Shown in pieces: positions 5,215 to 35,009 of a stretch of DNA of 36,421 nt (the first letter of the stretch is position 1; every line of letters begins with the position of its first letter). Below the pieces are notes generated by a model. That model was not told the origin of the DNA. It worked only from the letters and a program-made list of their open reading frames with translations, and did not search any database. Source of the DNA: a virus (lineage: Duplodnaviria; Heunggongvirae; Uroviricota; Caudoviricetes); IMG/VR virus record IMGVR_UViG_2718218361_000002; one strand, given 5' to 3'. Both the position numbers and the translations under genes were made by a program.

Positions 5215-5486
5215 GTATTCGTATTGAAATTGGCGAACGTTATGTCGTTACCAGTGACAGCTTTCAGTTTATTCTCCACGAGAAAAAGAGAGCGGAAAGC
5301 GGTAAAAACGCCGGTCAGGAATGGCTGGCGGTGGTTGGTTATTATCCGAAATTAAGCCAGCTCGTTTCCGGCCTGATGCATCACGATATTCTGACCGGAA
5401 GCGCAAAGTCTTTTGCTGATTTAAACGCGCAGGTTGAGCAACTCAGCAGGCGTTGTTCAGAGGCTTTTGGCTCATATGGCCGTTAA
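5211..5486 (+). CDS. hypothetical early protein (P2 orf83 position)
   Basis: 91-aa ORF, overlaps the A start. Confidence 0.6.
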   Translation: MSIRIEIGERYVVTSDSFQFILHEKKRAESGKNAGQEWLAVVGYYPKLSQLVSGLMHHDILTGSAKSFADLNAQVEQLSRRCSEAFGSYGR

Positions 5487-7752
5487 AGCCTCCGGGCGTT
5501 TTGTCCCTCCGTCAGCATTTGCCGCAGGCACCGGTAAGGCGTTTACCGGTGCTTATGCATGGAACGCGCCACGCGAGGCTGTCGGGCGCGAAAGACCCCT
5601 TACACGTGACGAGATGCGTCAGGTGCAAGGGGTTTTATCCACGATTAACCGTCTGCCTTACTTTTTGCGCTCGCTGTTTACTTCACGCTATGACTACATC
5701 CGGCGCAATAAAAGCCCGGTGCACGGGTTTTATTTCCTCACATCCACTTTTCAGCGTCGTTTATGGCCGCGCATTGAGCGTGTGAATCAGCGCCATGAAA
5801 TGAACACCGACGCGTCGTTGCTGTTTCTGGCAGAGCGCGACCAGTATGCGCGCCTGCCGGGGATGAATGACAAGGAGCTGAAAAAGTTTGCTGCCCGTAT
5901 CTCATCGCAGCTTTTCATGATGTATGAGGAACTCTGCGATGCCTGGGTGGATGCACATGGCGAAAAAGAATCGCTGTTTACGGATGAGGCGCAGGCTCAC
6001 CTCTATGGTCATGTTGCTGGCGCTGCACGTGCTTTCAATATTTCCCCGCTTTACTGGAAAAAATACCGTAAAGGGCAGATGACCACGAGGCAGGCATATT
6101 CTGCCATTGCCCGCCTGTTTAACGATGAGTGGTGGACTCATCAGCTTAAAGGCCAGCGTATGCGCTGGCATGAGGCGTTACTGATTGCTGTCGGGGAGGT
6201 CAATAAAGACCGTTCTCCTTATGCCAGTAAACATGCCATTCGTGATGTGCGTGCGCGCCGCCAGGCAAATCTGGAATTTCTTAAATCGTGTGACCTTGAA
6301 AACAGGGAAACCGGCGAGCGCATCGACCTTATCAGTAAGGTGATGGGCAGTATTTCTAATCCTGAAATTCGCCGGATGGAGCTGATGAACACCATTGCCG
6401 GTATTGAGCGTTACGCCGCCGCAGAGGGTGATGTGGGGATGTTTATCACGCTGACCGCGCCGTCAAAGTATCACCCGACACGTCAGGTCAGAAAAGGCGA
6501 AAGTAAAACCGTTCAGCTTAATCACGGCTGGAACGATGAGGCATTTAATCCAAAGGATGCGCAGCGTTATCTCTGCCGCATCTGGAGCCTGATGCGCACG
6601 GCATTCAAGGATAATGATTTACAGGTCTACGGTTTGCGTGTCGTCGAGCCACACCACGACGGAACGCCGCACTGGCATATGATGCTTTTTTGTAATCCAC
6701 GCCAGCGTAACCAGATTATTGAAATCATGCGTCGTTATGCGCTCAAAGAGGATGGCGACGAAAGAGGAGCCGCGCGAAACCGTTTTCAGGCAAAACACCT
6801 TAACCGGGGCGGTGCTGCGGGATATATCGCGAAATACATCTCAAAAAATATCGACGGCTATGCACTGGATGGTCAGCTCGATAACGATACCGGCAGACCG
6901 CTGAAAGACACTGCTGCGGCTGTTACCGCATGGGCGTCAACGTGGCGTATCCCGCAATTTAAAACGGTTGGCCTGCCGACAATGGGGGCTTACCGTGAAC
7001 TACGCAAACTGCCTCGCGGCGTCAGCATTGCTGATGAGTTTGACGAACGCGTCGAGGCTGTACGCGCCGCCGCAGACAGTGGTGATTTTGCGTTGTATAT
7101 CAGCGCGCAGGGTGGGGCAAATGTCCCGCGCGATTGTCAGACTGTCAGGGTTGCCCGTAGCCCGTCGGATGACGTTAACGAGTACGAGGAAGAAGTCGAG
7201 AGAGTGGTCGGCATTTACGCACCGCATCTCGGCGCGCGTCATATTCATATCACCAGAACCACGGACTGGCGCATTGTGCCGAAAGTGCCGGTCGTTGAGC
7301 CTTTGACTTTAAAAAGCGGCATCGCCGCGCCTCGGAGTCCTGTCAATAACTGTGGAAAGCTCACCGGTGGTGATACTTCGTTACCGGCTCCCACACCTTC
7401 TGAGCGCGCCGCAGCCGTGCTTAATCTGGTTGATGACGGTGTTATCGAATGGAATGACCCGGAGGTCGTGAGGGCGCTCAGGGGCGCATTAAAACACGGC
7501 CTGAGAACACCAAACCGTCAGCAAAGAAACGGAAGCCCGTTAAAACCGAATGAAATAGCGCCATCGGCCAGGCTGACCCGGTCGGAGCGTATGCAAATTA
7601 CCCGTATCCGTGTTGACCTTGCTCAGAACGGCATCTGGCCTCAGCGATGGGAACTTGAGGCGCTGGCGCGTGGAGCAACCGTAAATTATGACGGAAAAAA
7701 ATTCACGTATCTGGTCGCTGATGTGTGGCCGGGGTTCTCGTTACCCATTTGA
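5476..7752 (+). CDS. A: replication initiation protein A (rolling-circle nickase)
   Basis: ORF track 5434..7752; start placed at ATG 5476 (MAVKASGRFVPP...); ~758 aa; contains HWHMMLF (HUH-type motif) and tyrosine-rich GYIAKYISKNIDGY. Confidence 0.9.
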   Translation: MAVKASGRFVPPSAFAAGTGKAFTGAYAWNAPREAVGRERPLTRDEMRQVQGVLSTINRLPYFLRSLFTSRYDYIRRNKSPVHGFYFLTSTFQRRLWPRIERVNQRHEMNTDASLLFLAERDQYARLPGMNDKELKKFAARISSQLFMMYEELCDAWVDAHGEKESLFTDEAQAHLYGHVAGAARAFNISPLYWKKYRKGQMTTRQAYSAIARLFNDEWWTHQLKGQRMRWHEALLIAVGEVNKDRSPYASKHAIRDVRARRQANLEFLKSCDLENRETGERIDLISKVMGSISNPEIRRMELMNTIAGIERYAAAEGDVGMFITLTAPSKYHPTRQVRKGESKTVQLNHGWNDEAFNPKDAQRYLCRIWSLMRTAFKDNDLQVYGLRVVEPHHDGTPHWHMMLFCNPRQRNQIIEIMRRYALKEDGDERGAARNRFQAKHLNRGGAAGYIAKYISKNIDGYALDGQLDNDTGRPLKDTAAAVTAWASTWRIPQFKTVGLPTMGAYRELRKLPRGVSIADEFDERVEAVRAAADSGDFALYISAQGGANVPRDCQTVRVARSPSDDVNEYEEEVERVVGIYAPHLGARHIHITRTTDWRIVPKVPVVEPLTLKSGIAAPRSPVNNCGKLTGGDTSLPAPTPSERAAAVLNLVDDGVIEWNDPEVVRALRGALKHGLRTPNRQQRNGSPLKPNEIAPSARLTRSERMQITRIRVDLAQNGIWPQRWELEALARGATVNYDGKKFTYLVADVWPGFSLPI

Positions 7753-8012: not shown

Positions 8013-8042
8013 AAAAAAACCACCCTGGCAGGTGGTTTTTTT
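8013..8042. terminator. bidirectional rho-independent terminator
   Basis: AAAAAAA-CCACC-ctggca-GGTGG-TTTTTTT; A-run upstream and T-run downstream. Confidence 0.7.
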
Positions 8043-8054
8043 GTTTGAAGCATA

Positions 8055-8168
8055 TTAAAGCATAATGCTGACATTGATATTACTGACGTTTACTGACAAA
8101 CCACTCGGACTACCGTTTGGATAGCCAAAGAGGGCCAGAACGAGAATGCAGTAATAGCATTTCTTCAT
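8055..8168 (-). CDS. small hydrophobic peptide (37 aa), candidate membrane peptide
   Basis: MKKCYYCILVLALFGYPNGSPSGLSVNVSNINVSIML; AGGAGG SD 5 nt before the ATG (plus-strand CAT 8166..8168); ends just before terminator 8013..8042; longer 88-aa reading exists but lacks an RBS. Confidence 0.3.
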   Translation of the reverse strand: MKKCYYCILVLALFGYPNGSPSGLSVNVSNINVSIML

Positions 8169-8646
8169 ATTGCCTCCTGTAAGTAGAGGGCAACTTCCAC
8201 CGGTATATGCGCTTGTTAGGTGGAATGACTTTTGAGCGAAGTCTTGCCCTGAAATAATGCTCTGTTTAAACGCAAAGTGATTTGGCATATCACCGAACAG
8301 AGAGCCGGAAAAACACAACATATAGTATGTCGTTGTTTCTAGACATACATTCTATGTTGTGTAACAAGGGCTTTGCATTAAACATGTTTGAGATTTTATT
8401 GATGTAGCTCAAAGTAAAAAACAGAGACTACGGATGATAAGGTCTTGAAAGCAATGTAAATTTTTTAAAGTTGCCAATTGCTTAAAAATGTACAGTTGCG
8501 GTATGGCGTACTTAAAAAGCTATGCATGCAACAAGTGAATGTTTTTGCATGCGCTGGGGATGTCCGTTCAGGCTGCGTGCGGTCAGGACTGGTGCGGATC
8601 CATAGTATCTATGCAACTGCATTAAAACCGCCCCGTGAAGCGGGCG

Positions 8647-8665
8647 GGCGAGGCGGGGAAAGCAC
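8647..8665. other. cos site (19-nt cohesive-end sequence)
   Basis: GGCGAGGCGGGGAAAGCAC, which I recall as the P2 cohesive-end sequence, in a GC-rich island inside AT-rich DNA. Confidence 0.7.
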
Positions 8666-8916: not shown

Positions 8917-10350
8917 ATGAAAAAGCAAAGCGAAATTAACGTAAAAAAATTAGCATCATGGAGATTTTCATTTAAAAACATTGGGTGTATCTCTACAGGA
9001 GAAATTAATGCAAAACCTTTAACGCTTTTATGCGGAAAAAATAATACTGGTAAAACATGGGTTATGTATGGGTTATATGGCTTCCTAAATATGCCATCAC
9101 CATCTTTAAAATTGCCTCAAGTTGCAAATTTTGCCAAAACTCTTCGTGAAAATGGTAAGTTTGAATTAGATGTAATTGAGTGGATAAAAGATAATTTTAC
9201 GTTAATCAAAAGAGAATTTAATAAAGATTCATCTTTAATGCTTAAAGATGTATTCAACACTAATGATAAGGAAATTTTTTCTAATTCAACATTTGACTGG
9301 GTTATAGATGAAGAATCATTAGTATCAAGTGTTTATGAAAAAAAATTGGATGTTAGCCTCGTCATAGGAACCGGCAAAAAAGAAGTAATGCTATTATCCA
9401 AAGATAAAAATAGCAATATCATACAAATGACGCTGCTAGATTCTGCTTTCCCCAGAATTGATGGGTTTATAAACTTAACTCTAAGTCAGTTATTAAAGAT
9501 AGAGTATGATGAAAGCCCAGCATTTTTAATTCCCGCAGAAAGAAATGGCTTGCACCTTTTTTTCAATGAATTAAGTTCCAGAAGAACTGCGTTATTGCAC
9601 CACGCCTCAAAAGAACAGTTCGATCTGAACTCACTATTAATGGATGTAATGAAGTCTAAGTATTCTGCTCCTATAGCAAATTACATAGACTGGCTTAATG
9701 AAATTAAGGTTAATAGGAAAAATAAAAATGGCCAATTTCATAAATTAGCAGAAGAAGTAAAAAAAATAATTTCAGGAAAATATTCAGTTGATCCTGAAGG
9801 GCAGATTTATTTTTCAACGTATAAGAAAGGTAAGACACCTGCAAGTAAAATTGAACTTCATTTATCGTCATCCACTGTTAAAAGTTTGTTTGGCCTGTGG
9901 TTTTATTTAGAGCACCAAGCAAAAACTGGTGATATTTTAATGATTGACGAACCCGAGTTAAATTTACACCCGTCAAATCAGCGAGTAATTGCAAGATTTT
10001 TAGCAAAGCTAGTTAACTCTGGTATTCGGGTTATTGTTAGTACTCACAGTGATTATTTTGTAAAAGAAATCAATAGCTTGATTATGTTGCATGGCGTTTC
10101 TGAAAATATGATTGAAAAACGAAACGCTATCATGCAGAAGCAAGGGATTAGCATCGACTCAATTTTAGACTCTAACCTAGTCGCTGCGTATCTATTTGAT
10201 AATGGCTCAGTCAATGAAATGCAGAAGTCAAATGAAGGGATTAATGCTGTAACTTTTGATGAAGTAATTAATGCCATTAATGACGATAATGATGAAATAT
10301 ATTACTCCTTGGTGGAGAATGCCTCTGATAGTGAGGATGTAGATGAGTAA
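8917..10350 (+). CDS. ABC-type (AAA_15/AAA_21-like) ATPase, OLD/AbiLi/AriA/PtuA-like, family unassigned
   Basis: 477 aa; Walker A CGKNNTGKT, signature-like LSSSTVKSLFGL, Walker B DILMIDEPE, H-loop STHSDYF; ~280-aa insertion between Walker A and B; acidic C-terminal tail; SD TAAGGA; AT-rich. Confidence 0.85.
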   Translation: MKKQSEINVKKLASWRFSFKNIGCISTGEINAKPLTLLCGKNNTGKTWVMYGLYGFLNMPSPSLKLPQVANFAKTLRENGKFELDVIEWIKDNFTLIKREFNKDSSLMLKDVFNTNDKEIFSNSTFDWVIDEESLVSSVYEKKLDVSLVIGTGKKEVMLLSKDKNSNIIQMTLLDSAFPRIDGFINLTLSQLLKIEYDESPAFLIPAERNGLHLFFNELSSRRTALLHHASKEQFDLNSLLMDVMKSKYSAPIANYIDWLNEIKVNRKNKNGQFHKLAEEVKKIISGKYSVDPEGQIYFSTYKKGKTPASKIELHLSSSTVKSLFGLWFYLEHQAKTGDILMIDEPELNLHPSNQRVIARFLAKLVNSGIRVIVSTHSDYFVKEINSLIMLHGVSENMIEKRNAIMQKQGISIDSILDSNLVAAYLFDNGSVNEMQKSNEGINAVTFDEVINAINDDNDEIYYSLVENASDSEDVDE

Positions 10351-10915
10351 TATTATCAATGTAATACAAAGTTGCATCGATCCTACATTTCAATTAATGC
10401 GAGAGCAGGAATGCTGGGTTGTATGCGAAGAGAACCCAGGTGCTACAAATAAAAAATTACTGGTAAACGGAAATGGTATCTATGGATTTTCGCTAGATTC
10501 TAATAGTATTTCTAAACCAGTCTGGAAATTTTTAAAATCTTCTGCTTTACCAGGAGTATGCTCTGTTTGTGATGGAATTTTTGTTACGTCGCACAAAGAC
10601 GTAGATTATTTTATCGTAATAGATCTCAAATCTTATAACTCAAATGGTGCGGCTAAACAGGTAGTTACTGGCATTCATTTTTGTAAGTGGCTATATTCTG
10701 TATTGAATTTACATGGGCATTTGTCAAGAAAAGTGGATTACATTGGTGTAATAAGTAAATTATCGAGGAGGCAGCAATCAGCTAAAAAAACAACTGTTCG
10801 CTCGCAATTGCCTCCTCCTGAAATTTGCTATAATTATCCTGTGTTTACATTGGAAAACTATAACAGATTATCACTGGCGCATATTTGTGACTTTATATAC
10901 AATATGAAAAAATAA
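10343..10915 (+). CDS. small partner protein (190 aa), possible TOPRIM-like or PD-(D/E)xK-like nuclease, family unassigned
   Basis: ATG overlaps the ATPase stop by 8 nt, with GAGGA SD; motifs VVCEEN, CSVCDG, HKDVDYFIVIDLK; AT-rich. Confidence 0.8.
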   Translation: MSNIINVIQSCIDPTFQLMREQECWVVCEENPGATNKKLLVNGNGIYGFSLDSNSISKPVWKFLKSSALPGVCSVCDGIFVTSHKDVDYFIVIDLKSYNSNGAAKQVVTGIHFCKWLYSVLNLHGHLSRKVDYIGVISKLSRRQQSAKKTTVRSQLPPPEICYNYPVFTLENYNRLSLAHICDFIYNMKK

Positions 10916-10973: not shown

Positions 10974-12002
10974 TTAATTATCGTCTAAAGAGTAATTTTT
11001 GAATTGAATAACTTCGGCGCTGAGCCAGCCGTTTATCTCGCGGATCCTGTCCTGTAGCGGGATAAGCTCATTGCGGACAAAGACCTTTGCCACTTTCTCA
11101 ATATCACCCAGTGACCCGACGTTCTCCGGCTTGCCGCCCATCAACTGAAAGGGGATGCGGTGCGCGTCCAGCAGGTCAGCGGCGCTGGCTTTTTTGATAT
11201 TAAAAAAATCGTCCTTCGTCGCCACTTCACTGAGGGGGATAATTTTAATGCCGTCGGCTTTCCCCTGTGGGGCATAGAGAAACAGGTTTTTAAAGTTGTT
11301 GCGACCTTTCGACTTGACCATGTTTTCGCGAAGCATTTCGATATCGTTGCGATCCTGCACGGCATCAGTGACGTACATGATGTATCCGGCATGAGCGCCG
11401 TTTTCGTAATACTTGCGGCGGAACAGCGTGGCTGACTCATTCAGCCAGGCAGAGTTAAGGGCGCTGAGATATTCCGGCAGGCCGTACAGCTCCTGATTGA
11501 TATCCGGCTCCAGCAGGTGAAACACGGAGCCGGGCGCGAAGGCTGTCGGCTCGTTGAAGGACGGCACCCACCAGTAAACATCCTCCTCCACGCCACGGCG
11601 GGTATATTTTGCCGGCGAGGTTTCCAGCCTGATAACCTTACCGGTGGTGCTGTAACGCTTTTCCAGAAACGCATTACCGAACACCAGAAAATCCAGCACA
11701 AAACGGCTGAAATCCTGCTGGGAAAGCCACGGGTGCGGGATAAACGTTGAAGCCAGAATATTACGTTTGACGTAAATCGGTGAGCTGTGATGCACGGCAG
11801 CACGCAGGCTTTTCGCCAGACCGGTAAAGCTGACCGGTGGCTCATACCATCTGCCGTTACTGATGCACTCGACGTAATCCAGAATGTCACGCCGGTCGAG
11901 TACCGGCACCGGCTCACCAAAGGTGAATGCCTCCATTTTCGGGGCGCTGGCGGTCATTTTTTTTGCCGCAGGTTGCGGTGTTTTCCCTTTTTTCTTGCTC
12001 AT
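10974..12002 (-). CDS. Q: portal protein
   Basis: 342 aa; MSKKKGKTPQPAAK...; P2 gpQ-like. Confidence 0.95.
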   Translation of the reverse strand: MSKKKGKTPQPAAKKMTASAPKMEAFTFGEPVPVLDRRDILDYVECISNGRWYEPPVSFTGLAKSLRAAVHHSSPIYVKRNILASTFIPHPWLSQQDFSRFVLDFLVFGNAFLEKRYSTTGKVIRLETSPAKYTRRGVEEDVYWWVPSFNEPTAFAPGSVFHLLEPDINQELYGLPEYLSALNSAWLNESATLFRRKYYENGAHAGYIMYVTDAVQDRNDIEMLRENMVKSKGRNNFKNLFLYAPQGKADGIKIIPLSEVATKDDFFNIKKASAADLLDAHRIPFQLMGGKPENVGSLGDIEKVAKVFVRNELIPLQDRIREINGWLSAEVIQFKNYSLDDN

Positions 12003-13774
12003 CAGTAAAACTCCAGAATGGTGGATGTCAGCGGGGTGCTGATACCGGCGGTGAGTGGCTCATTTAACAGGGCGTGCATGGTCGCCCAGGCGAGGTCGGC
12101 GTGGCTGGCTTCCTCGCTGCGGCTGGCCTCATAGGTGGCACTGCGTCCGCTGCTGGTCATGGTCTTGCGGATAGCCATAAACGAGCTGGTGATGTCGGTG
12201 GCGCTGACGTCATATTCCAGACAGCCACGGCGGATAACGTCTTTTGCCTTGAGCACCATTGCGGTTTTCATTTCCGGCGTGTAGCGGATATCGCGCGCGG
12301 CGGGATAGAACGAGCGCACGAGCTGGAACACGCCGACACCGAGGCCGGTGGCATCAATTCCGATGTATTCGACGTTGTATTTTTCGGTGAGTTTGCGGAT
12401 GGATTCCGCCTGGGTGGCAAAGTCCATGCCTTTCCACTGGTGACGCTCAAGTATTCTGAATTTGCCACCGGCCACCACCGGCGGTGCCAGTACCACGCAT
12501 CCGGCGCTGTCGCCACGGTGTGACGGGTCGTAACCAATCCATACCGGACGTGAGCCGAACGGATTTGTGGCAAACGGCGCATAGTCTTCCCATTCTTCCA
12601 GCGTGTCGACCATGCAGCGTTGCAGCTCCTCGAACGGGAACACCGATGCCTTGTCGTCAACAAATTCACACATGAACAGGTTTTTAAAATCGTCGGCGCT
12701 GTTTTCGCGTTTAAGCTGCTCAATGTCGAACAATGTGCAGCCGCCTTTCAGGGCGTCCTCAATGGTGACAATCTGCCGCCACTGGCCGTCCGCACAGAGA
12801 AGCCCACCGGCAAGGGCGTTATGACTGACGTCGATTTCCACGCGTTCGGCGGCGCTGGCGCGTCCCCGGTTAAACAGTTCACCGGACCAGAACGGGTAGG
12901 CGTCGTGCGCCAGCGTGGACGGGGTGGAGAAATAGGTCGAGCGCAGGTGACTCTGTGAGGCCATACCTGATGCCACCTTACGGAGCACCTGAAAATTCGG
13001 GATCCAGAAAATCTCGTCGACGTACAGGTCGCCGTTATGGCTCTGCGCGGTGTTGGAGTTGGTGCCGAGAAAAATCAGTTTTGCGCCGTTATTGCCCAGG
13101 ACAATCGGGTCACCGGTCAGGTCAACGTCAACCAGACGGGCAAAGGCGATGATGTATTCACGGAACACATACGCCTGCGTTTTACTGGCCGACAGAAAAA
13201 TCTGGTTATGGCCGGTTTTCAGGGCGCGCAGCAGCGCCTCGCGGGAAAAATAAAACGTCGCGCCAATCTGGCGGGATTTCAGGATATCGCGGATGCGGTG
13301 CTCAAGCCCTGCGCGATACCAGTGCAACTGATATTCGAAAGACTGCTCAAAGAAAATCTGCTCCAGCTTTTCGATGGCCTCGTCACTGAAAAAATTCTTT
13401 TTCGGTTTGCGACGCCCGCTTTTGTTGCGGTTAGCGACGTTCGGATTAAGGTCTGCCTCGTTGCCGGTCTGACTGTAACGGTTGACCCGTGCCAGTCGTT
13501 CAATCTGGCGTCCGAGCAGGTCAATTTCCTTGAAGTCACCGCCGGTTTTCTGCGGTTTGATGATGAGCTGGGTCAGTCGCGCTTCCAGACTCATTTCGAC
13601 ACGGCTGATGGGGGCAACGCTGTCCCAGCCGTCGCGCTGTTTCCAGCTCTGCACCGTCGGGCGTTTCATCTGCAACATGGCGGCAATCTGCGGCACGGAA
13701 AACCCCTGCCAGTACAGCAGCGCCGCCTGACGACGCGGGTCGTGTAAAAGAGTGGTGTCTGTGGTGATGGTCAT
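12002..13774 (-). CDS. P: terminase large subunit (ATPase)
   Basis: ORF track 12002..13804; start placed at internal ATG (MTITTDTTLLHDP...); 590 aa; P2 gpP-like. Confidence 0.9.
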   Translation of the reverse strand: MTITTDTTLLHDPRRQAALLYWQGFSVPQIAAMLQMKRPTVQSWKQRDGWDSVAPISRVEMSLEARLTQLIIKPQKTGGDFKEIDLLGRQIERLARVNRYSQTGNEADLNPNVANRNKSGRRKPKKNFFSDEAIEKLEQIFFEQSFEYQLHWYRAGLEHRIRDILKSRQIGATFYFSREALLRALKTGHNQIFLSASKTQAYVFREYIIAFARLVDVDLTGDPIVLGNNGAKLIFLGTNSNTAQSHNGDLYVDEIFWIPNFQVLRKVASGMASQSHLRSTYFSTPSTLAHDAYPFWSGELFNRGRASAAERVEIDVSHNALAGGLLCADGQWRQIVTIEDALKGGCTLFDIEQLKRENSADDFKNLFMCEFVDDKASVFPFEELQRCMVDTLEEWEDYAPFATNPFGSRPVWIGYDPSHRGDSAGCVVLAPPVVAGGKFRILERHQWKGMDFATQAESIRKLTEKYNVEYIGIDATGLGVGVFQLVRSFYPAARDIRYTPEMKTAMVLKAKDVIRRGCLEYDVSATDITSSFMAIRKTMTSSGRSATYEASRSEEASHADLAWATMHALLNEPLTAGISTPLTSTILEFY

Positions 13775-13947
13775 GAATACCTCGCCGTGATGAATACACG
13801 GCAAGGCTACTGAGTCGCGCCCCGCGATTCGCTAAGGTGCTGTTGTGTCAGTGATAAGCCATCTGGGACTGATGGCGGAGGATGCGCATCGTCGGGAAAC
13901 TGATGCCGACATGTGACTCCTCTAATCACTATTCAGGACTCCTGACA

Positions 13948-20250: not shown

Positions 20251-21324
20251 TTACTTTCCATTTTTTAATGAATTGATTAACGATGCTATTTGCTCAATGC
20301 CATCAAATGTAGATGGTATCTTATCATCGGATAGCATGATGTTTGAAAATACTACGTCTTCGAATTTTGAAAGCGCTTCCGGATTGTTTTTCCTTATCTC
20401 TGAGGAATAGTCGCTATAACTCTGAATGAACTGACAAAGGCTCTTTCTGAGTTCTATTTGCATAATCTGAGTTCGTAACGATATATGATTTATCAGTACA
20501 ACTCTAAAGTAATACATGAAAATCAATGTAACTGATGCAAAAGGTAGTGCTGACATAAAATATGTGGCAGCATTTGTCGTTTCGAGAGTTGGTAATTTAT
20601 GCATTCCATAGTATATCAGCGGGGAGGGAATGATTATAGCCAAGATGATAAGAATTATTCTTGATAGCATGATTTCACTTTCTTTCTTTTTGCCAAGTGA
20701 ATTAAAGCCATCAAACAATCCAACAAAATTAAATGCGACCTCATACCCTTTTAATGACTCTTTAATTGACTCTATTTTGGCATGTTGCTCCTTTAAGAAG
20801 GAGTCGCACTTTTCGAAAAATTGACGCCCTTCGTTTAAACTATCAATGTATTTTTTATATGTGTCAACATTGCTGGAGCTTAAAACTTCTTTAACCATTG
20901 CTAATGGCAGTTCTCTAAGAGAAAAGTCTATCTGTGCTCTGCTCCGCTCATCGAATTCATTATAGTTATACAGAGCAAAATCCTTGATGGTTCTTAGTGG
21001 TGAAAAGTGAGACTCTATTTCCGGAGAGAGAATGCTTGGTTCAATGATAAATCTAAAAAAGCAAGTGAATATAAGGTTGATGCTGTTGTTATCTTCCCCC
21101 TTTTCTCTTAAGAAACTTTTAAAGGTGTCGCCAATCATAGCAATGTTGTACTGGGATTTTTTGTCCCAATCTTCAGGGTTTTCGGAAATGAAGTTTATTG
21201 CTTGAGCAATTATTTTGTTTCTGTTTGATTCAAAGTTTGTGCTGGGAGTCAGCGTGTTCAAAAAGACCAGATAATCTTTGAACAATTCTTTCATTGTTTC
21301 TGACGAGAAAAAGTAAGTACTCAT
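20251..21324 (-). CDS. hypothetical two-pass membrane protein (accessory gene at the S-V locus, P2 orf30 position)
   Basis: ORF track 20251..21420; start placed at internal ATG (plus-strand CAT 21322..21324) to avoid overlapping V; ~357 aa; hydrophobic helices IMLSRIILIILAIIIPSPLIYYG and YFMSALPFASVTLIFMYYFRVVLI; AT-rich, opposite to the late genes. Confidence 0.75.
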   Translation of the reverse strand: MSTYFFSSETMKELFKDYLVFLNTLTPSTNFESNRNKIIAQAINFISENPEDWDKKSQYNIAMIGDTFKSFLREKGEDNNSINLIFTCFFRFIIEPSILSPEIESHFSPLRTIKDFALYNYNEFDERSRAQIDFSLRELPLAMVKEVLSSSNVDTYKKYIDSLNEGRQFFEKCDSFLKEQHAKIESIKESLKGYEVAFNFVGLFDGFNSLGKKKESEIMLSRIILIILAIIIPSPLIYYGMHKLPTLETTNAATYFMSALPFASVTLIFMYYFRVVLINHISLRTQIMQIELRKSLCQFIQSYSDYSSEIRKNNPEALSKFEDVVFSNIMLSDDKIPSTFDGIEQIASLINSLKNGK

Positions 21325-21410
21325 AATGGATTTTGTTGTCCCTTGTTGTTCTGTGCACCAGAAATCGTGGTGTGATTTACTTCGAGATTGTACAGAATCA
21401 TTATTATCGA

Positions 21411-22040
21411 ATGAATGCACAATACAATGAAATTCTTCGCTTTATACGCAATATGATTCGCACTGGCATTATCGTCGAAACCGACCTTAATGCCGGTCGC
21501 TGCCGTGTGCAGACCGGCGGCATGTGCACCGACTGGCTTCAGTGGCTGACCCATCGCGCTGGGCGTTCGCGCACATGGTGGGCACCTTCCGTGGGGGAAC
21601 AGGTGCTGATTCTGGCCGTGGGCGGTGAACTCGACACGGCGTTCGTTCTGCCGGGGATTTATTCCGGCGATAACCCTGCGCCGTCTGCGTCGGCGGATGC
21701 CCTGCATATCCGTTTCCCTGACGGGGCGGTGATTGAGTATGAACCTGAAACCAGTGCACTCACGGTAAGCGGAATTAAAACGGCCAGCGTGACGGCTTCT
21801 GATTCTGTTACTGCCACGGTACCAGTGGTCACGGTGAAAGCATCAACCCGCGTCACCCTGGACACACCAGAAGTGGTCTGCACTAACAAACTGACTACCG
21901 GCACGCTGGAAGTGCAGAAGGGCGGGACGATGCGCGGCAACATTGAACACACCGGCGGTGAACTCTCATCAAACGGTAAGGTACTGCATACCCACAAACA
22001 CCCCGGCGACAGCGGCGGCACAACCGGGAGTCCTTTATGA
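21411..22040 (+). CDS. V: baseplate spike/assembly protein V
   Basis: ORF track 21333..22040; start at ATG 21411 (MNAQYNEILRFIRNMIRTG...); 209 aa. Confidence 0.9.
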   Translation: MNAQYNEILRFIRNMIRTGIIVETDLNAGRCRVQTGGMCTDWLQWLTHRAGRSRTWWAPSVGEQVLILAVGGELDTAFVLPGIYSGDNPAPSASADALHIRFPDGAVIEYEPETSALTVSGIKTASVTASDSVTATVPVVTVKASTRVTLDTPEVVCTNKLTTGTLEVQKGGTMRGNIEHTGGELSSNGKVLHTHKHPGDSGGTTGSPL

Positions 22041-25853: not shown

Positions 25854-26381
25854 ATGATGCACTTAAAGAAAATAAAAGCGGGTAACGCTAAAACACTGGA
25901 ACAGTATGAGTTAACAAAGAAACACGGAGTTATCTGGCTTTACTCTGAGGACGGAAAAAACTGGTATGAGGAAGTGAAGAACTTTCAGCCAGATACAATA
26001 AAGATTGTTTACGATGAAAATAATATTATTGTCGCTATCACCAGAGATGCTTCAACGCTTAATCCTGAAGGTTTTAGCGTTGTCGAGGTTCCTGATATTA
26101 CCGCCAACCGACGTGCTGATGACTCAGGGAAATGGATGTTTAAGGATGGTGCCGTGATTAAGCGGATTTATACGGCAGACGAACAGCAACAACAGGCCGA
26201 ATCACAAAAGGCCGCGTTACTTTCCGAAGCTGAATCAGTTATCCAGCCGCTGGAACGCGCCGTCAGGCTGAATATGGCGACGGATGAGGAGCGCGCACGA
26301 CTGGAGTCATGGGAACGCTACAGCGTTCTGGTCAGCCGTGTGGATCCTGCAAATCCTGAATGGCCGGAAATACCGCAATAA
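25854..26381 (+). CDS. G: tail fiber assembly chaperone
   Basis: 175 aa immediately downstream of H. Confidence 0.9.
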
Positions 26382-26671: not shown

Positions 26672-27898
26672 ATGTTACAGTTCAGCTTTGTATCAAATGA
26701 CGTTGTTATGACTTACGACGGTGACAGCGGAGAACAAATAATTTGGGTTTGGGAGAGTTTAAATAAATTTCAAACAGTATGCATTTCACGCATTTTTAAC
26801 TTTCAACTCCAGGACTTGAGAAACCCACCGTCAACCGTTCAGGATTTTAATGATTATGAATATTCCTTTAATTTTGGCACGCTTAATAATGAATACATAA
26901 CAGTTCCGGGACGGATTCTAAGCATTAATCGAGATGTCCTTATACATAAGTCCATCAAGCTTGAAAGGAAAGTATTTGCGTCAGAACGCAACGTCTCCAT
27001 TTTTGGTCGGCTTTCAAAACTACTCGATCACACTAATCCCATCATCATCGGAGGAGATAAGCCGGAAGCTATACCAAAAAGCGTATTCCAGGAGTTGCAA
27101 AGTAAATTCCCCAACACAGGGGAACTGGATCGCTATGCTAATGCAAGGGTTCACGCTATTCTCGCAGGTTATCTTGATGGTATGAAAGATGCTCGCGAAC
27201 GGTATGAACATTACCTAAACAGAAAAACAGTGATCAGAAAAACCGACAAACTGGATTTAGAAGTTTTAAATAAGCTCGAAATTGAGAAATATACACTCAT
27301 AAGAGACATTATCCAGGATGCGTTGAATAACAAAACTAACTTGTCTGAAGATGACTGGCAGAGCCTGATGATACCCTTCATCACATTACTTTTTCCAAAA
27401 TATATCAAGGTCCTCGAGAAGGTTAAAATTTTCGACTATTACTCTAATCCTTCGGCTAAAACAAATCGGTTTATAGACATTGCACTGGTGGATGCAAACG
27501 GCAACCTTGATATCATCGAAGTCAAAAAGCCGTTTGATGATAAGATCCTTCGCAAGACGCCCTATCGCGACAACTATATTCCTACATCAGAACTTAGCGG
27601 CGGTATTATGCAGGCTGAAAAGTATATTTTTCATTTATCTAAATGGGGTGTTAAGGGTGAAAAAGAGCTTACGAATGCCTACAAGAATTCTCTGCCAGCG
27701 GGAATGTGTATTCGTATATCTAACCCAAAAGCCATCATCATTGTCGGGCGCGATCAGATAGCGAACGGTAACATGACCGACGGTCAGTTGCTTGATTTTG
27801 AGATAATCAAACGTAAGTACGCCAACATGATAGACATATTGACGTACGACGACCTGTTGCGTCGACTTAATAATACGATTGAAGCATTGAAAGGTTGA
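26672..27898 (+). CDS. PD-(D/E)xK nuclease-like protein, Shedu/DUF4263-like candidate (accessory gene at the G-FI locus, P2 Z/fun position)
   Basis: 408 aa; SD GAGGAA; C-terminal half has RFIDIALVDANGNLDIIEVKKP (D...D...ExK) followed by AIIIVGRD; AT-rich. Confidence 0.8.
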   Translation: MLQFSFVSNDVVMTYDGDSGEQIIWVWESLNKFQTVCISRIFNFQLQDLRNPPSTVQDFNDYEYSFNFGTLNNEYITVPGRILSINRDVLIHKSIKLERKVFASERNVSIFGRLSKLLDHTNPIIIGGDKPEAIPKSVFQELQSKFPNTGELDRYANARVHAILAGYLDGMKDARERYEHYLNRKTVIRKTDKLDLEVLNKLEIEKYTLIRDIIQDALNNKTNLSEDDWQSLMIPFITLLFPKYIKVLEKVKIFDYYSNPSAKTNRFIDIALVDANGNLDIIEVKKPFDDKILRKTPYRDNYIPTSELSGGIMQAEKYIFHLSKWGVKGEKELTNAYKNSLPAGMCIRISNPKAIIIVGRDQIANGNMTDGQLLDFEIIKRKYANMIDILTYDDLLRRLNNTIEALKG

Positions 27899-28184: not shown

Positions 28185-29375
28185 ATGAGCGACTATCATC
28201 ATGGCGTGCAGGTGCTGGAGATTAACGACGGCACCCGCGTCATTTCCACCGTATCCACGGCCATTGTCGGCATGGTCTGCACGGCCAGCGATGCGGATGC
28301 GGAAATCTTCCCCCTCAATAAACCGGTACTGATTACCAATGTGCAGAGCGCAATTGCAAAGGCTGGTAAAAAAGGCACGCTGGCGGCATCGTTGCAGGCC
28401 ATCGCCGACCAGTCAAAACCGGTCACCGTTGTCGTACGTGTGGAAGACGGCACCGGCGACGACGAGGAAACGAAACTCGCGCAGACCGTTTCCAATATCA
28501 TCGGCACCACCGACGAAAACGGTCAGTACACCGGACTGAAAGCCCTGCTGGCGGCGGAGTCGGTAACCGGTGTTAAACCGCGTATTCTCGGCGTGCCGGG
28601 ACTGGATACCAAAGAGGTGGCTGTTGCACTGGCATCAGTCTGTCAGAAGCTGCGCGCTTTCGGGTATATCAGCGCATGGGGCTGTAAAACCATTTCCGAG
28701 GTGAAAGCCTACCGTCAGAATTTCAGCCAGCGTGAGCTGATGGTCATCTGGCCGGATTTCCTCGCATGGGATACGGTCACCAGTACCACCGCCACCGCGT
28801 ATGCCACCGCCCGTGCGCTGGGGCTGCGCGCTAAAATCGACCAGGAGCAGGGCTGGCATAAAACGCTGTCCAATGTCGGGGTGAACGGTGTTACCGGCAT
28901 CAGCGCCTCTGTATTCTGGGATTTGCAGGAGTCCGGTACTGATGCTGACCTGCTTAACGAGTCAGGCGTCACAACGCTGATTCGCCGTGACGGTTTCCGC
29001 TTCTGGGGTAACCGTACCTGCTCTGATGACCCGCTGTTCCTCTTTGAAAACTACACCCGCACCGCGCAGGTGCTGGCCGACACGATGGCTGAGGCGCACA
29101 TGTGGGCGGTGGACAAGCCCATCACTGCAACGCTGATTCGCGACATCGTTGACGGTATTAATGCCAAATTCCGTGAGCTGAAAACAAACGGCTATATCGT
29201 GGATGCGACCTGCTGGTTCAGCGAAGAATCCAACGATGCGCAAACCCTCAAGGCCGGAAAACTGTATATCGACTACGACTATACCCCGGTGCCTCCTCTT
29301 GAAAACCTGACCCTGCGCCAGCGTATTACCGATAAATACCTGGCAAATCTGGTCACCTCGGTTAACAGCAATTAA
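28185..29375 (+). CDS. FI: tail sheath protein
   Basis: 396 aa; MSDYHHGVQVLEINDGTRVISTV... Confidence 0.95.
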   Translation: MSDYHHGVQVLEINDGTRVISTVSTAIVGMVCTASDADAEIFPLNKPVLITNVQSAIAKAGKKGTLAASLQAIADQSKPVTVVVRVEDGTGDDEETKLAQTVSNIIGTTDENGQYTGLKALLAAESVTGVKPRILGVPGLDTKEVAVALASVCQKLRAFGYISAWGCKTISEVKAYRQNFSQRELMVIWPDFLAWDTVTSTTATAYATARALGLRAKIDQEQGWHKTLSNVGVNGVTGISASVFWDLQESGTDADLLNESGVTTLIRRDGFRFWGNRTCSDDPLFLFENYTRTAQVLADTMAEAHMWAVDKPITATLIRDIVDGINAKFRELKTNGYIVDATCWFSEESNDAQTLKAGKLYIDYDYTPVPPLENLTLRQRITDKYLANLVTSVNSN

Positions 29376-34887: not shown

Positions 34888-34915
34888 TAAAAAATAAGCC
34901 CGTGTAAGGGAGATT
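34888..34915. repeat. attR core (lies in the 3' terminator end of cyaR)
   Basis: TAAAAAATAAGCCCGTGTAAGGGAGATT, identical to 1790..1817. Confidence 0.85.
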
Positions 34916-34975
34916 ACACAGGCTAAGGAGGTGGTTCCTGGTACAGCTAGCATTTTATGGGTTATGTTTTTCAGC
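34889..34975 (-). ncRNA. cyaR: CyaR (RyeE) Hfq-dependent sRNA
   Basis: Reverse complement reads GCTGAAAAACATAACCCATAAAATGCTAGCTGTACCAGGAACCACCTCCTTAGCCTGTGTAATCTCCCTTACACGGGCTTATTTTTT, matching my recollection of E. coli CyaR; sits between the prophage and yegQ as in K-12. Confidence 0.85.
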
Positions 34976-35009
34976 GAAACGGATGATAACCTTAATAAAT
35001 ACAGCTGTA

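Follow-up and report, generated by a model that had tools for sequence, protein, structure and literature searches.

PD-T4-4, a two-gene anti-phage system, came out of a functional selection against T4 with E. coli ECOR58, and its published listing reads 'ATPase, nuclease' (Vassallo et al. 2022, PMC9519451). The prototype proteins are RCO57999.1 and RCO57988.1 of E. coli ECOR58 (PMC9519451), and the effector is classed in the literature as PD-(D/E)xK. EcPD-T4-4 protects against T4, and its A and B subunits form a higher-order complex, which cut 0 of 11 DNA substrates in vitro under any condition tested, this assay with DNA substrates being the only published one of a PD-T4-4 complex. Protection against T4 has been demonstrated for the ECOR58 prototype only. 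The defence by WonAB is abortive and depends both on the motifs of the ATPase and on the lysine of the effector (Adams et al. 2025, PMC12137116). Overproduction of WonB is toxic only with a functional WonA; translation is then arrested and the genomic DNA remains undamaged, and the lysine mutant K71A loses both defence and toxicity (PMC12137116). The authors suspected rRNA or tRNA as the target, and they treated PD-T4-4 as a relative of WonAB, with models of the two shown in parallel (Adams et al. 2025, PMC12137116). The term 'OLD-ABC + novel REase', as quoted by Adams et al. (PMC12137116), comes from the ABC-ATPase classification of Krishnan et al. 2020. P2 OLD, another ABC-ATPase-coupled nuclease, is called 'an abortive tRNase' in the title of a 2026 preprint. 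A cos-proximal defence hotspot between gpA and gpQ has been described in P2-like prophages (Rousset et al. PMC9122126; Vassallo et al. PMC9519451).

In this study, a stretch of DNA of 36,421 nucleotides (the window) was analysed, and the main subject was a 190-aa protein encoded in it. We believe with good confidence that this protein is effector B of a two-gene anti-phage system of the PD-T4-4 type, which is carried as cargo of the P2 hotspot and has a divergent PD-(D/E)xK fold. An earlier, sequence-only reading had held that the identity of this protein decides whether the module is known or new. The matches to PD-T4-4 and the position in the P2 hotspot settle this point: the module is a divergent member of the known PD-T4-4 family and not a new kind of system.

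A single P2-like (Peduovirus) prophage makes up essentially the whole window. The hotspot is anchored on the left by gene A, which encodes the P2 gpA replication endonuclease (5434..7752, plus strand; annotated by RefSeq at the identical locus) and whose DNA is 97-98% identical to the Peduovirus gene A of sequenced genomes. The right anchor is the P2 gpQ portal gene (10974..12002, minus strand; annotated by RefSeq, with Pfam Phage_portal in equivalent loci), followed by the terminase gene (12002..13804, minus strand) and then by the scaffold and capsid genes. On its left, the cargo slot is bounded by the P2-type cos core, the 19-mer GGCGAGGCGGGGAAAGCAC at 8647..8665 (plus strand), which was an exact single match with 0 expected by chance and which we take to be the P2 cohesive-end sequence. 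About 60 bp around GGCGAGGCGGGGAAAGCAC recurred in 2122 of the 5426 complete E. coli genomes, in up to 5 places per genome, as expected for a cos core common to P2 and P4 elements. The ATPase and effector genes have a GC content of 32-34%, compared with about 52-58% for the phage genes on either side, and the pair is low-GC cargo. Because it lies between cos and the portal gene, it belongs to the cos-proximal gpA-gpQ defence hotspot. The defence cargo of this prophage is on the portal side of cos, and the old and tin genes of P2 itself are presumably on the gene-A side.

The cargo is rare, with copies in 19 of the 5426 complete E. coli genomes; 3 of these are at 88% identity and 16 at an identity of at least 99%, E. 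coli W and its derivatives being among the 16. Sensitive blastn of the E. coli genomes gave no copies beyond these 19, and blastn and tblastn of deposited phage genomes and plasmids showed that the cargo genes were absent there. Since the sensitive blastn revealed no DNA similarity to other E. coli loci, we assign the pair to a distant PD-T4-4 clade.

Other features of the prophage were also recorded. A second defence gene, encoding Shedu SduA of 408 aa (26672..27898, plus strand), matched PADLOC PDLC04067 at an E-value of 1e-219 and Pfam SduA_C at 3e-33. This gene, too, is low-GC cargo; its neighbours are the ORFs 25854..26381 and 28185..29375, which are taken as the tail-fibre assembly and tail-sheath genes, and its slot corresponds to the P2 Z/fun position, which Vassallo et al. 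(PMC9519451) noted as a second hotspot of P2. A 389-aa ORF (20251..21420, minus strand) lies on the opposite strand in an island of 35-42% GC in the block of tail and baseplate genes; Pfam and PADLOC gave no match for it, and PHROGs gave only phrog_9373 (unknown function). This ORF could be a third cargo or defence candidate, and its site is presumably the P2 orf30 position. Between gene A and cos, the 37-codon ORF MKKCYYCILVLALFGYPNGSPSGLSVNVSNINVSIML (8058..8171, minus strand) encodes a small hydrophobic protein, and a perfect AGGAGG Shine-Dalgarno sequence closely precedes its start codon; the ORF is absent from the RefSeq annotation, and the search for a family match to it gave none. Just downstream of it, a GC-rich hairpin at about 8013-8045, with runs of A and T on its sides, resembles a bidirectional terminator. 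The gene for the CyaR/RyeE sRNA (34892..34977, minus strand; Rfam RF00112, 100.7 bits) is located just beyond the apparent right end of the prophage, and it marks the host attachment region.

The cargo consists of two genes on the plus strand. The gene for an ABC ATPase of 477 aa, PD-T4-4_A-like and of the OLD clade, is located at 8917..10350, and the effector gene, PD-T4-4_B-like and with a predicted PD-(D/E)xK fold, at 10343..10915. The effector ORF of 190 aa, with an ATG start, was present as the sequence-only reading had described it, and it is a genuine gene. The two genes overlap by 8 nt (10343..10350, ATGAGTAA), the stop codon of the ATPase lying over the start of the effector, and they therefore form one operon and are probably translationally coupled. 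At the identical locus of E. coli W, RefSeq names the products 'AAA family ATPase' (WP_000744812.1) and 'hypothetical protein' (WP_001350078.1).

The ATPase matched the PADLOC PD-T4-4_A model PDLC04033 with an E-value of 2.1e-112 (374.7 bits), and the match spanned residues 16-465 of the protein and positions 2-458 of the 460 of the model. Other PADLOC models matched far more weakly, namely AriA (1.8e-29) and Old (2e-15), together with NsnB, PtuA and GajA. The Pfam matches were AAA_15 (6e-26) and AAA_21 (8e-17). The Walker A motif (GKNNTGKT, residues 40-47, nt 9034-9057), the Walker B motif (ILMIDE, residues 340-345, nt 9934-9951) and the H-loop (T-H-S, residues 376-378) are all intact. Near the C-terminus there is an IYYSL motif, and after it comes a polar tail, which in this protein is acidic (ENASDSEDVDE); this region is encoded at 10285..10347 (plus strand). 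When the C-terminal 25 residues were compared, IYYSL was found in the ATPases of loci L005, L006, L007 and L009, the four whose 25 residues reach the motif, in relatives down to 42% identity. By analogy with the C-terminal extension of WonA, we regard the IYYSL region as a candidate docking site for the effector.

The neighbourhoods of five relatives were examined, two close and three distant, and A and B were adjacent and co-oriented in all of them. The close relatives from Pantoea and Cronobacter occupy the equivalent P2 hotspot and have the same type of ATPase upstream. The three distant effectors (24-28% identity) are found in unrelated non-prophage chromosomal contexts, directly 3' of an AAA_15/AAA_21 ATPase of 425-438 aa that overlaps them by 14-44 nt. 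A and B overlap by 8-44 nt in L005, L006, L007 and L009, and they are separated by an 11-nt gap in L002. One distant relative, P0146 (loci L007 and L008), is located near methyltransferase and helicase-type restriction endonuclease genes. Identities of 81, 65, 50 and 42% in A were paired with identities of 67, 54, 28 and 24%, respectively, in B, and judging from these values the two subunits diverge together. In the Cronobacter sakazakii locus (L005, 4570..6008), the ATPase gene is broken into two ORFs (143 and 322 aa) and the effector gene is intact; this copy is probably a decaying system.

Pfam and NCBIfam gave no family for the 190-aa protein, and the HMM profile of the effector, compared with all PDB sequences, had 0 matches at E<=10. 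The PADLOC PD-T4-4_B model PDLC04037 matched residues 2-155 with an E-value of 1.2e-15 (55.8 bits), which is significant and weak. Word-indexed searches gave 11 close homologues at 54-99% identity in Escherichia, Cronobacter, Enterobacter and Pantoea, those that align over the full length being 54-79% identical, and a second and a third search of this type added few sequences. A profile scan of 1.84 billion representatives gave 135 relatives at E<=1e-3, and almost all of them are 180-200 aa long. The PD-T4-4_B model was matched by 74 of the 76 aligned relatives (best E-value 2.8e-46), and the PDC-M47B model was also matched by 10 relatives. Over the 76 relatives, the Pfam matches were all below threshold, to HSDR_N_2, RE_LlaJI and Hjc. 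The named relatives are all called 'hypothetical protein', including the copies of Vibrio cholerae and V. alginolyticus, and in PHROGs the effector falls in phrog_14491, which is labelled as unknown function. The family has no Pfam model, and the annotated copies that we examined in RefSeq, PHROGs and protein collections all carry 'hypothetical protein' or 'unknown function', so that about 135 clusters could gain an annotation from the assignment to PD-T4-4_B.

The sequence-only reading had considered either a PD-(D/E)xK or a TOPRIM nuclease and had proposed structure prediction with fold comparison. The prediction with AlphaFold2 and the alignment of 76 sequences gave a confident model (pLDDT 93.4, pTM 0.89); a model made with 10 close homologues was poor (pLDDT 63) and was left out of the fold search. 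In the confident model, D77 stands directly before the strand 78-84, which forms a hairpin with the strand 87-96 bearing D94 and K96, and Q106 opens a long helix (103-123), after which comes the strand 131-139. The model has the alpha-beta-beta-beta-alpha-beta core of the PD-(D/E)xK superfamily, and the predicted placement of D77, D94, K96 and Q106 on beta2, beta3 and alpha2 is the canonical one of a restriction-endonuclease core. The comparison by Foldseek with the PDB gave no match at E<=1e-3. The weak PDB matches included FokI, N.BspD6I, BamHI and bunyavirus cap-snatching endonucleases, the aligned domain not being resolved in the multi-domain proteins. In BFVD there was one unnamed match at 8e-4, and the matches to UL24 and Mrr-like proteins were weak. 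The weak matches as a whole were enriched in the restriction-endonuclease fold, and from the model we assign the effector to a divergent restriction-endonuclease (PD-(D/E)xK) fold.

The conservation of residues was counted in the alignment of 76 sequences, which has a mean column identity of 25% and includes relatives down to 20% identity. D77 (10571-10573) and Q106 (10658-10660) were invariant (76/76). Position 94 (D94 here, 10622-10624) was always acidic, with 55 E and 21 D, and K96 (10628-10630) was kept in 74 of 76 (97%), which bears out the proposal that VIDLK holds an acidic D-x-K. The predicted catalytic core, from D77 to Q106, is encoded at 10571..10660 (plus strand), as judged from the alignment and the secondary structure. 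Further upstream (10427..10498, plus strand), D52 (10496-10498) was D in 70 and E in 5 of the 76 sequences, and E29 (10427-10429) was E in 61 and D in 4. The acidic residues of VVCEEN had been proposed for alanine substitution; the first, E29, was well kept (80% E, 86% acidic), and E30 was found in only 7 of 76 (9%). The acidic residues of KDVD did not hold up, D86 being present in 14 of 76 (18%) and D88 in 18 of 76 (24%). In the alignment, the motif of the effector thus reads D77 ... (D/E)94-x-K96 ... Q106, with E29 and D52. We predict that D77, D94-x-K96 and Q106 form a metal-dependent active site, in which E29 and D52 probably assist and are candidates for extra metal ligands. The list of residues for mutation was corrected to D77, D94, K96, Q106, E29 and D52, and the KDVD aspartates were excluded.

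There is also a basic loop at residues 143-151 (10769..10795, plus strand) with the family consensus R-x4-K-G-T-T, outside the canonical PD-(D/E)xK motif. R143 was kept in 67 of 76 sequences, position 148 was K in 66 and R in 9, and position 151 was T in 57 and S in 17. Model confidence is lowest around this loop (mean pLDDT 71 over residues 141-150). The loop could contact the substrate or the ATPase, and it could serve as an RNA-recognition element.

The other strings singled out in the sequence-only reading were all found at their sites, VVCEEN starting at residue 26, GIY at 45, CSVCDG at 73, GIFVTSHKDVDYFIVIDLK at 78 and YIG at 133. GIY and YIG are 88 residues apart and a GIY-YIG nuclease requires 10-11, so the earlier judgement that they are too distant was correct; in addition, Y47 is mostly Phe in the relatives, and the family and fold searches gave no GIY-YIG match. 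The CxxC pair of CSVCDG was not conserved: C73 was kept in 8 of 76 (11%), and C76, although present in 62 of 76, had no conserved partner, and a zinc ribbon or CxxC site was rejected.

Several other explanations of the effector were considered. The effector might be a TOPRIM nuclease, and the pair a split OLD/PARIS-like system of the AriA and AriB type, because the ATPase belongs to the same AAA_15 clade, as the matches to AriA and Old indicate, and because the sequence-only reading had seen a possible E...DxD. This is contradicted by the effector itself: the conserved Glu and DxD on a Rossmann-like sheet were sought in the alignment, the model and the searches, and neither the signature nor the fold was seen, so that the TOPRIM half of the earlier proposal falls away and we consider it extremely improbable. 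Pfam and PADLOC likewise gave no AriB or DUF4435 match for the effector, and PARIS was rejected as an identification. The suggestion of an HNH (His-Me finger) nuclease comes from the introduction of the 2026 preprint 10.64898/2026.07.10.737580, which groups PD-T4-4 with Septu as ABC + HNH, and H124 and H126 are indeed present in 68% and 61% of the relatives. However, the AlphaFold2 model contains no beta-beta-alpha metal finger, the searches gave no HNH match and the pattern of conservation speaks for other residues, and we attach practically no weight to it.

A more subtle possibility is that B has the restriction-endonuclease fold and is non-catalytic, acting as a nucleic-acid-binding adaptor or sensor, in which case the ATPase or a host factor would cause the growth arrest. 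Binding modules with an inactivated restriction-endonuclease fold are known, and the EcPD-T4-4 complex did not cleave DNA under any condition tested. Against this, the catalytic set is invariant or nearly so down to 20% identity, which argues for catalysis under selection, and the equivalent lysine mutant of WonB, K71A, is without defence and toxicity (PMC12137116); we regard a non-catalytic B as distinctly unlikely. We give even less credit to a toxin-antitoxin pair, which is very unlikely; B would then act as toxin and the AAA_21 'AbiEii-like' ATPase as antitoxin, and the pair would serve to stabilise the prophage instead of detecting phage. The overlap of the two genes and their place on a mobile element would suit such a pair, and the description of Pfam AAA_21 mentions a type IV TA toxin. 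But the toxicity of WonB needs a functional ATPase and the deletion of WonA is not lethal (PMC12137116), the loss of either gene of PARIS is non-toxic, and the PD-T4-4 prototype came from a selection for phage defence (PMC9519451). We keep to the effector B of a PD-T4-4-type system as the preferred reading.

By analogy with the related systems, the following mechanism is proposed for the PD-T4-4-type pair. A dimer of the ABC ATPase would hold B in an inactive complex, perhaps through the conserved C-terminal IYYSL region. The ATPase would sense a cue of phage infection, and the binding or hydrolysis of ATP would license B. The licensed B would then cleave nucleic acid, so that the infection would be aborted and the population of lysogens protected.

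Concerning the substrate of B, we lean to RNA because of the negative DNA assays of EcPD-T4-4 and the result with WonAB. The preprint title that calls P2 OLD a tRNase also counts in favour of RNA. From these precedents, there is about an even chance that B would cut RNA (tRNA or rRNA, with translation arrest); phage or host DNA is a possible substrate of lower probability, and something else is unlikely. The negative DNA assays of EcPD-T4-4 may reflect only a missing trigger. We tentatively speculated, as a reading that falls somewhat short of an even chance, that the PD-T4-4_B family, with its divergent restriction-endonuclease fold, acts as an ATPase-licensed RNase that cuts tRNA or rRNA and not DNA, and with which P2-like prophages stop translation in superinfected cells. 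If true, the RNase reading would explain why the prototype complex was inert on every DNA tried, and the pattern of an ABC ATPase with a translation-targeting nuclease (PrrC, PARIS, OLD and WonAB) would be extended to a PD-(D/E)xK effector. The P2-borne variant in the laboratory strain E. coli W and its derivatives is a convenient natural system for the question of RNA versus DNA.

Among the known systems closest to the locus is the PD-T4-4 prototype. In both, the gene of an AAA_15 ABC ATPase (about 470 aa) comes first and that of a partner of about 190 aa second, the total lengths are similar (1973 bp in the prototype and 1999 bp here), and both proteins described here match the PADLOC PD-T4-4 models. 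In contrast, the prototype is carried by an ICE-like element (PMC9519451) and the present pair lies in the P2 cos-proximal hotspot, and B here is divergent, with a weak family-model match (55.8 bits), the comparison having been made through the models. WonAB of the Vibrio cholerae WASA-1 prophage (PMC12137116) is likewise prophage-borne and joins an OLD-clade ABC ATPase to a small variant PD-(D/E)xK effector; by its published description, WonB is smaller (16.1 kDa, with the catalytic lysine K71) than the effector of 190 aa with K96 here. In the proposed mechanism the pair would work in the manner of WonAB, and its resemblance to PARIS, OLD and Gabija is more distant. PARIS (AriA and AriB), P2 OLD and the GajA protein of Gabija use the same clade of ABC ATPase as a sensor or regulator of a nuclease, and the P4 and P2 hotspots are home to PARIS and OLD as well (PMC9122126). 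The nuclease of PARIS, OLD and GajA is a TOPRIM protein (DUF4435 in AriB), whereas the effector here has a predicted restriction-endonuclease fold. Among the closest systems there are also the classical PD-(D/E)xK nucleases Hjc, NucS, the cleavage domain of FokI, McrC, Can2 and Shedu SduA.
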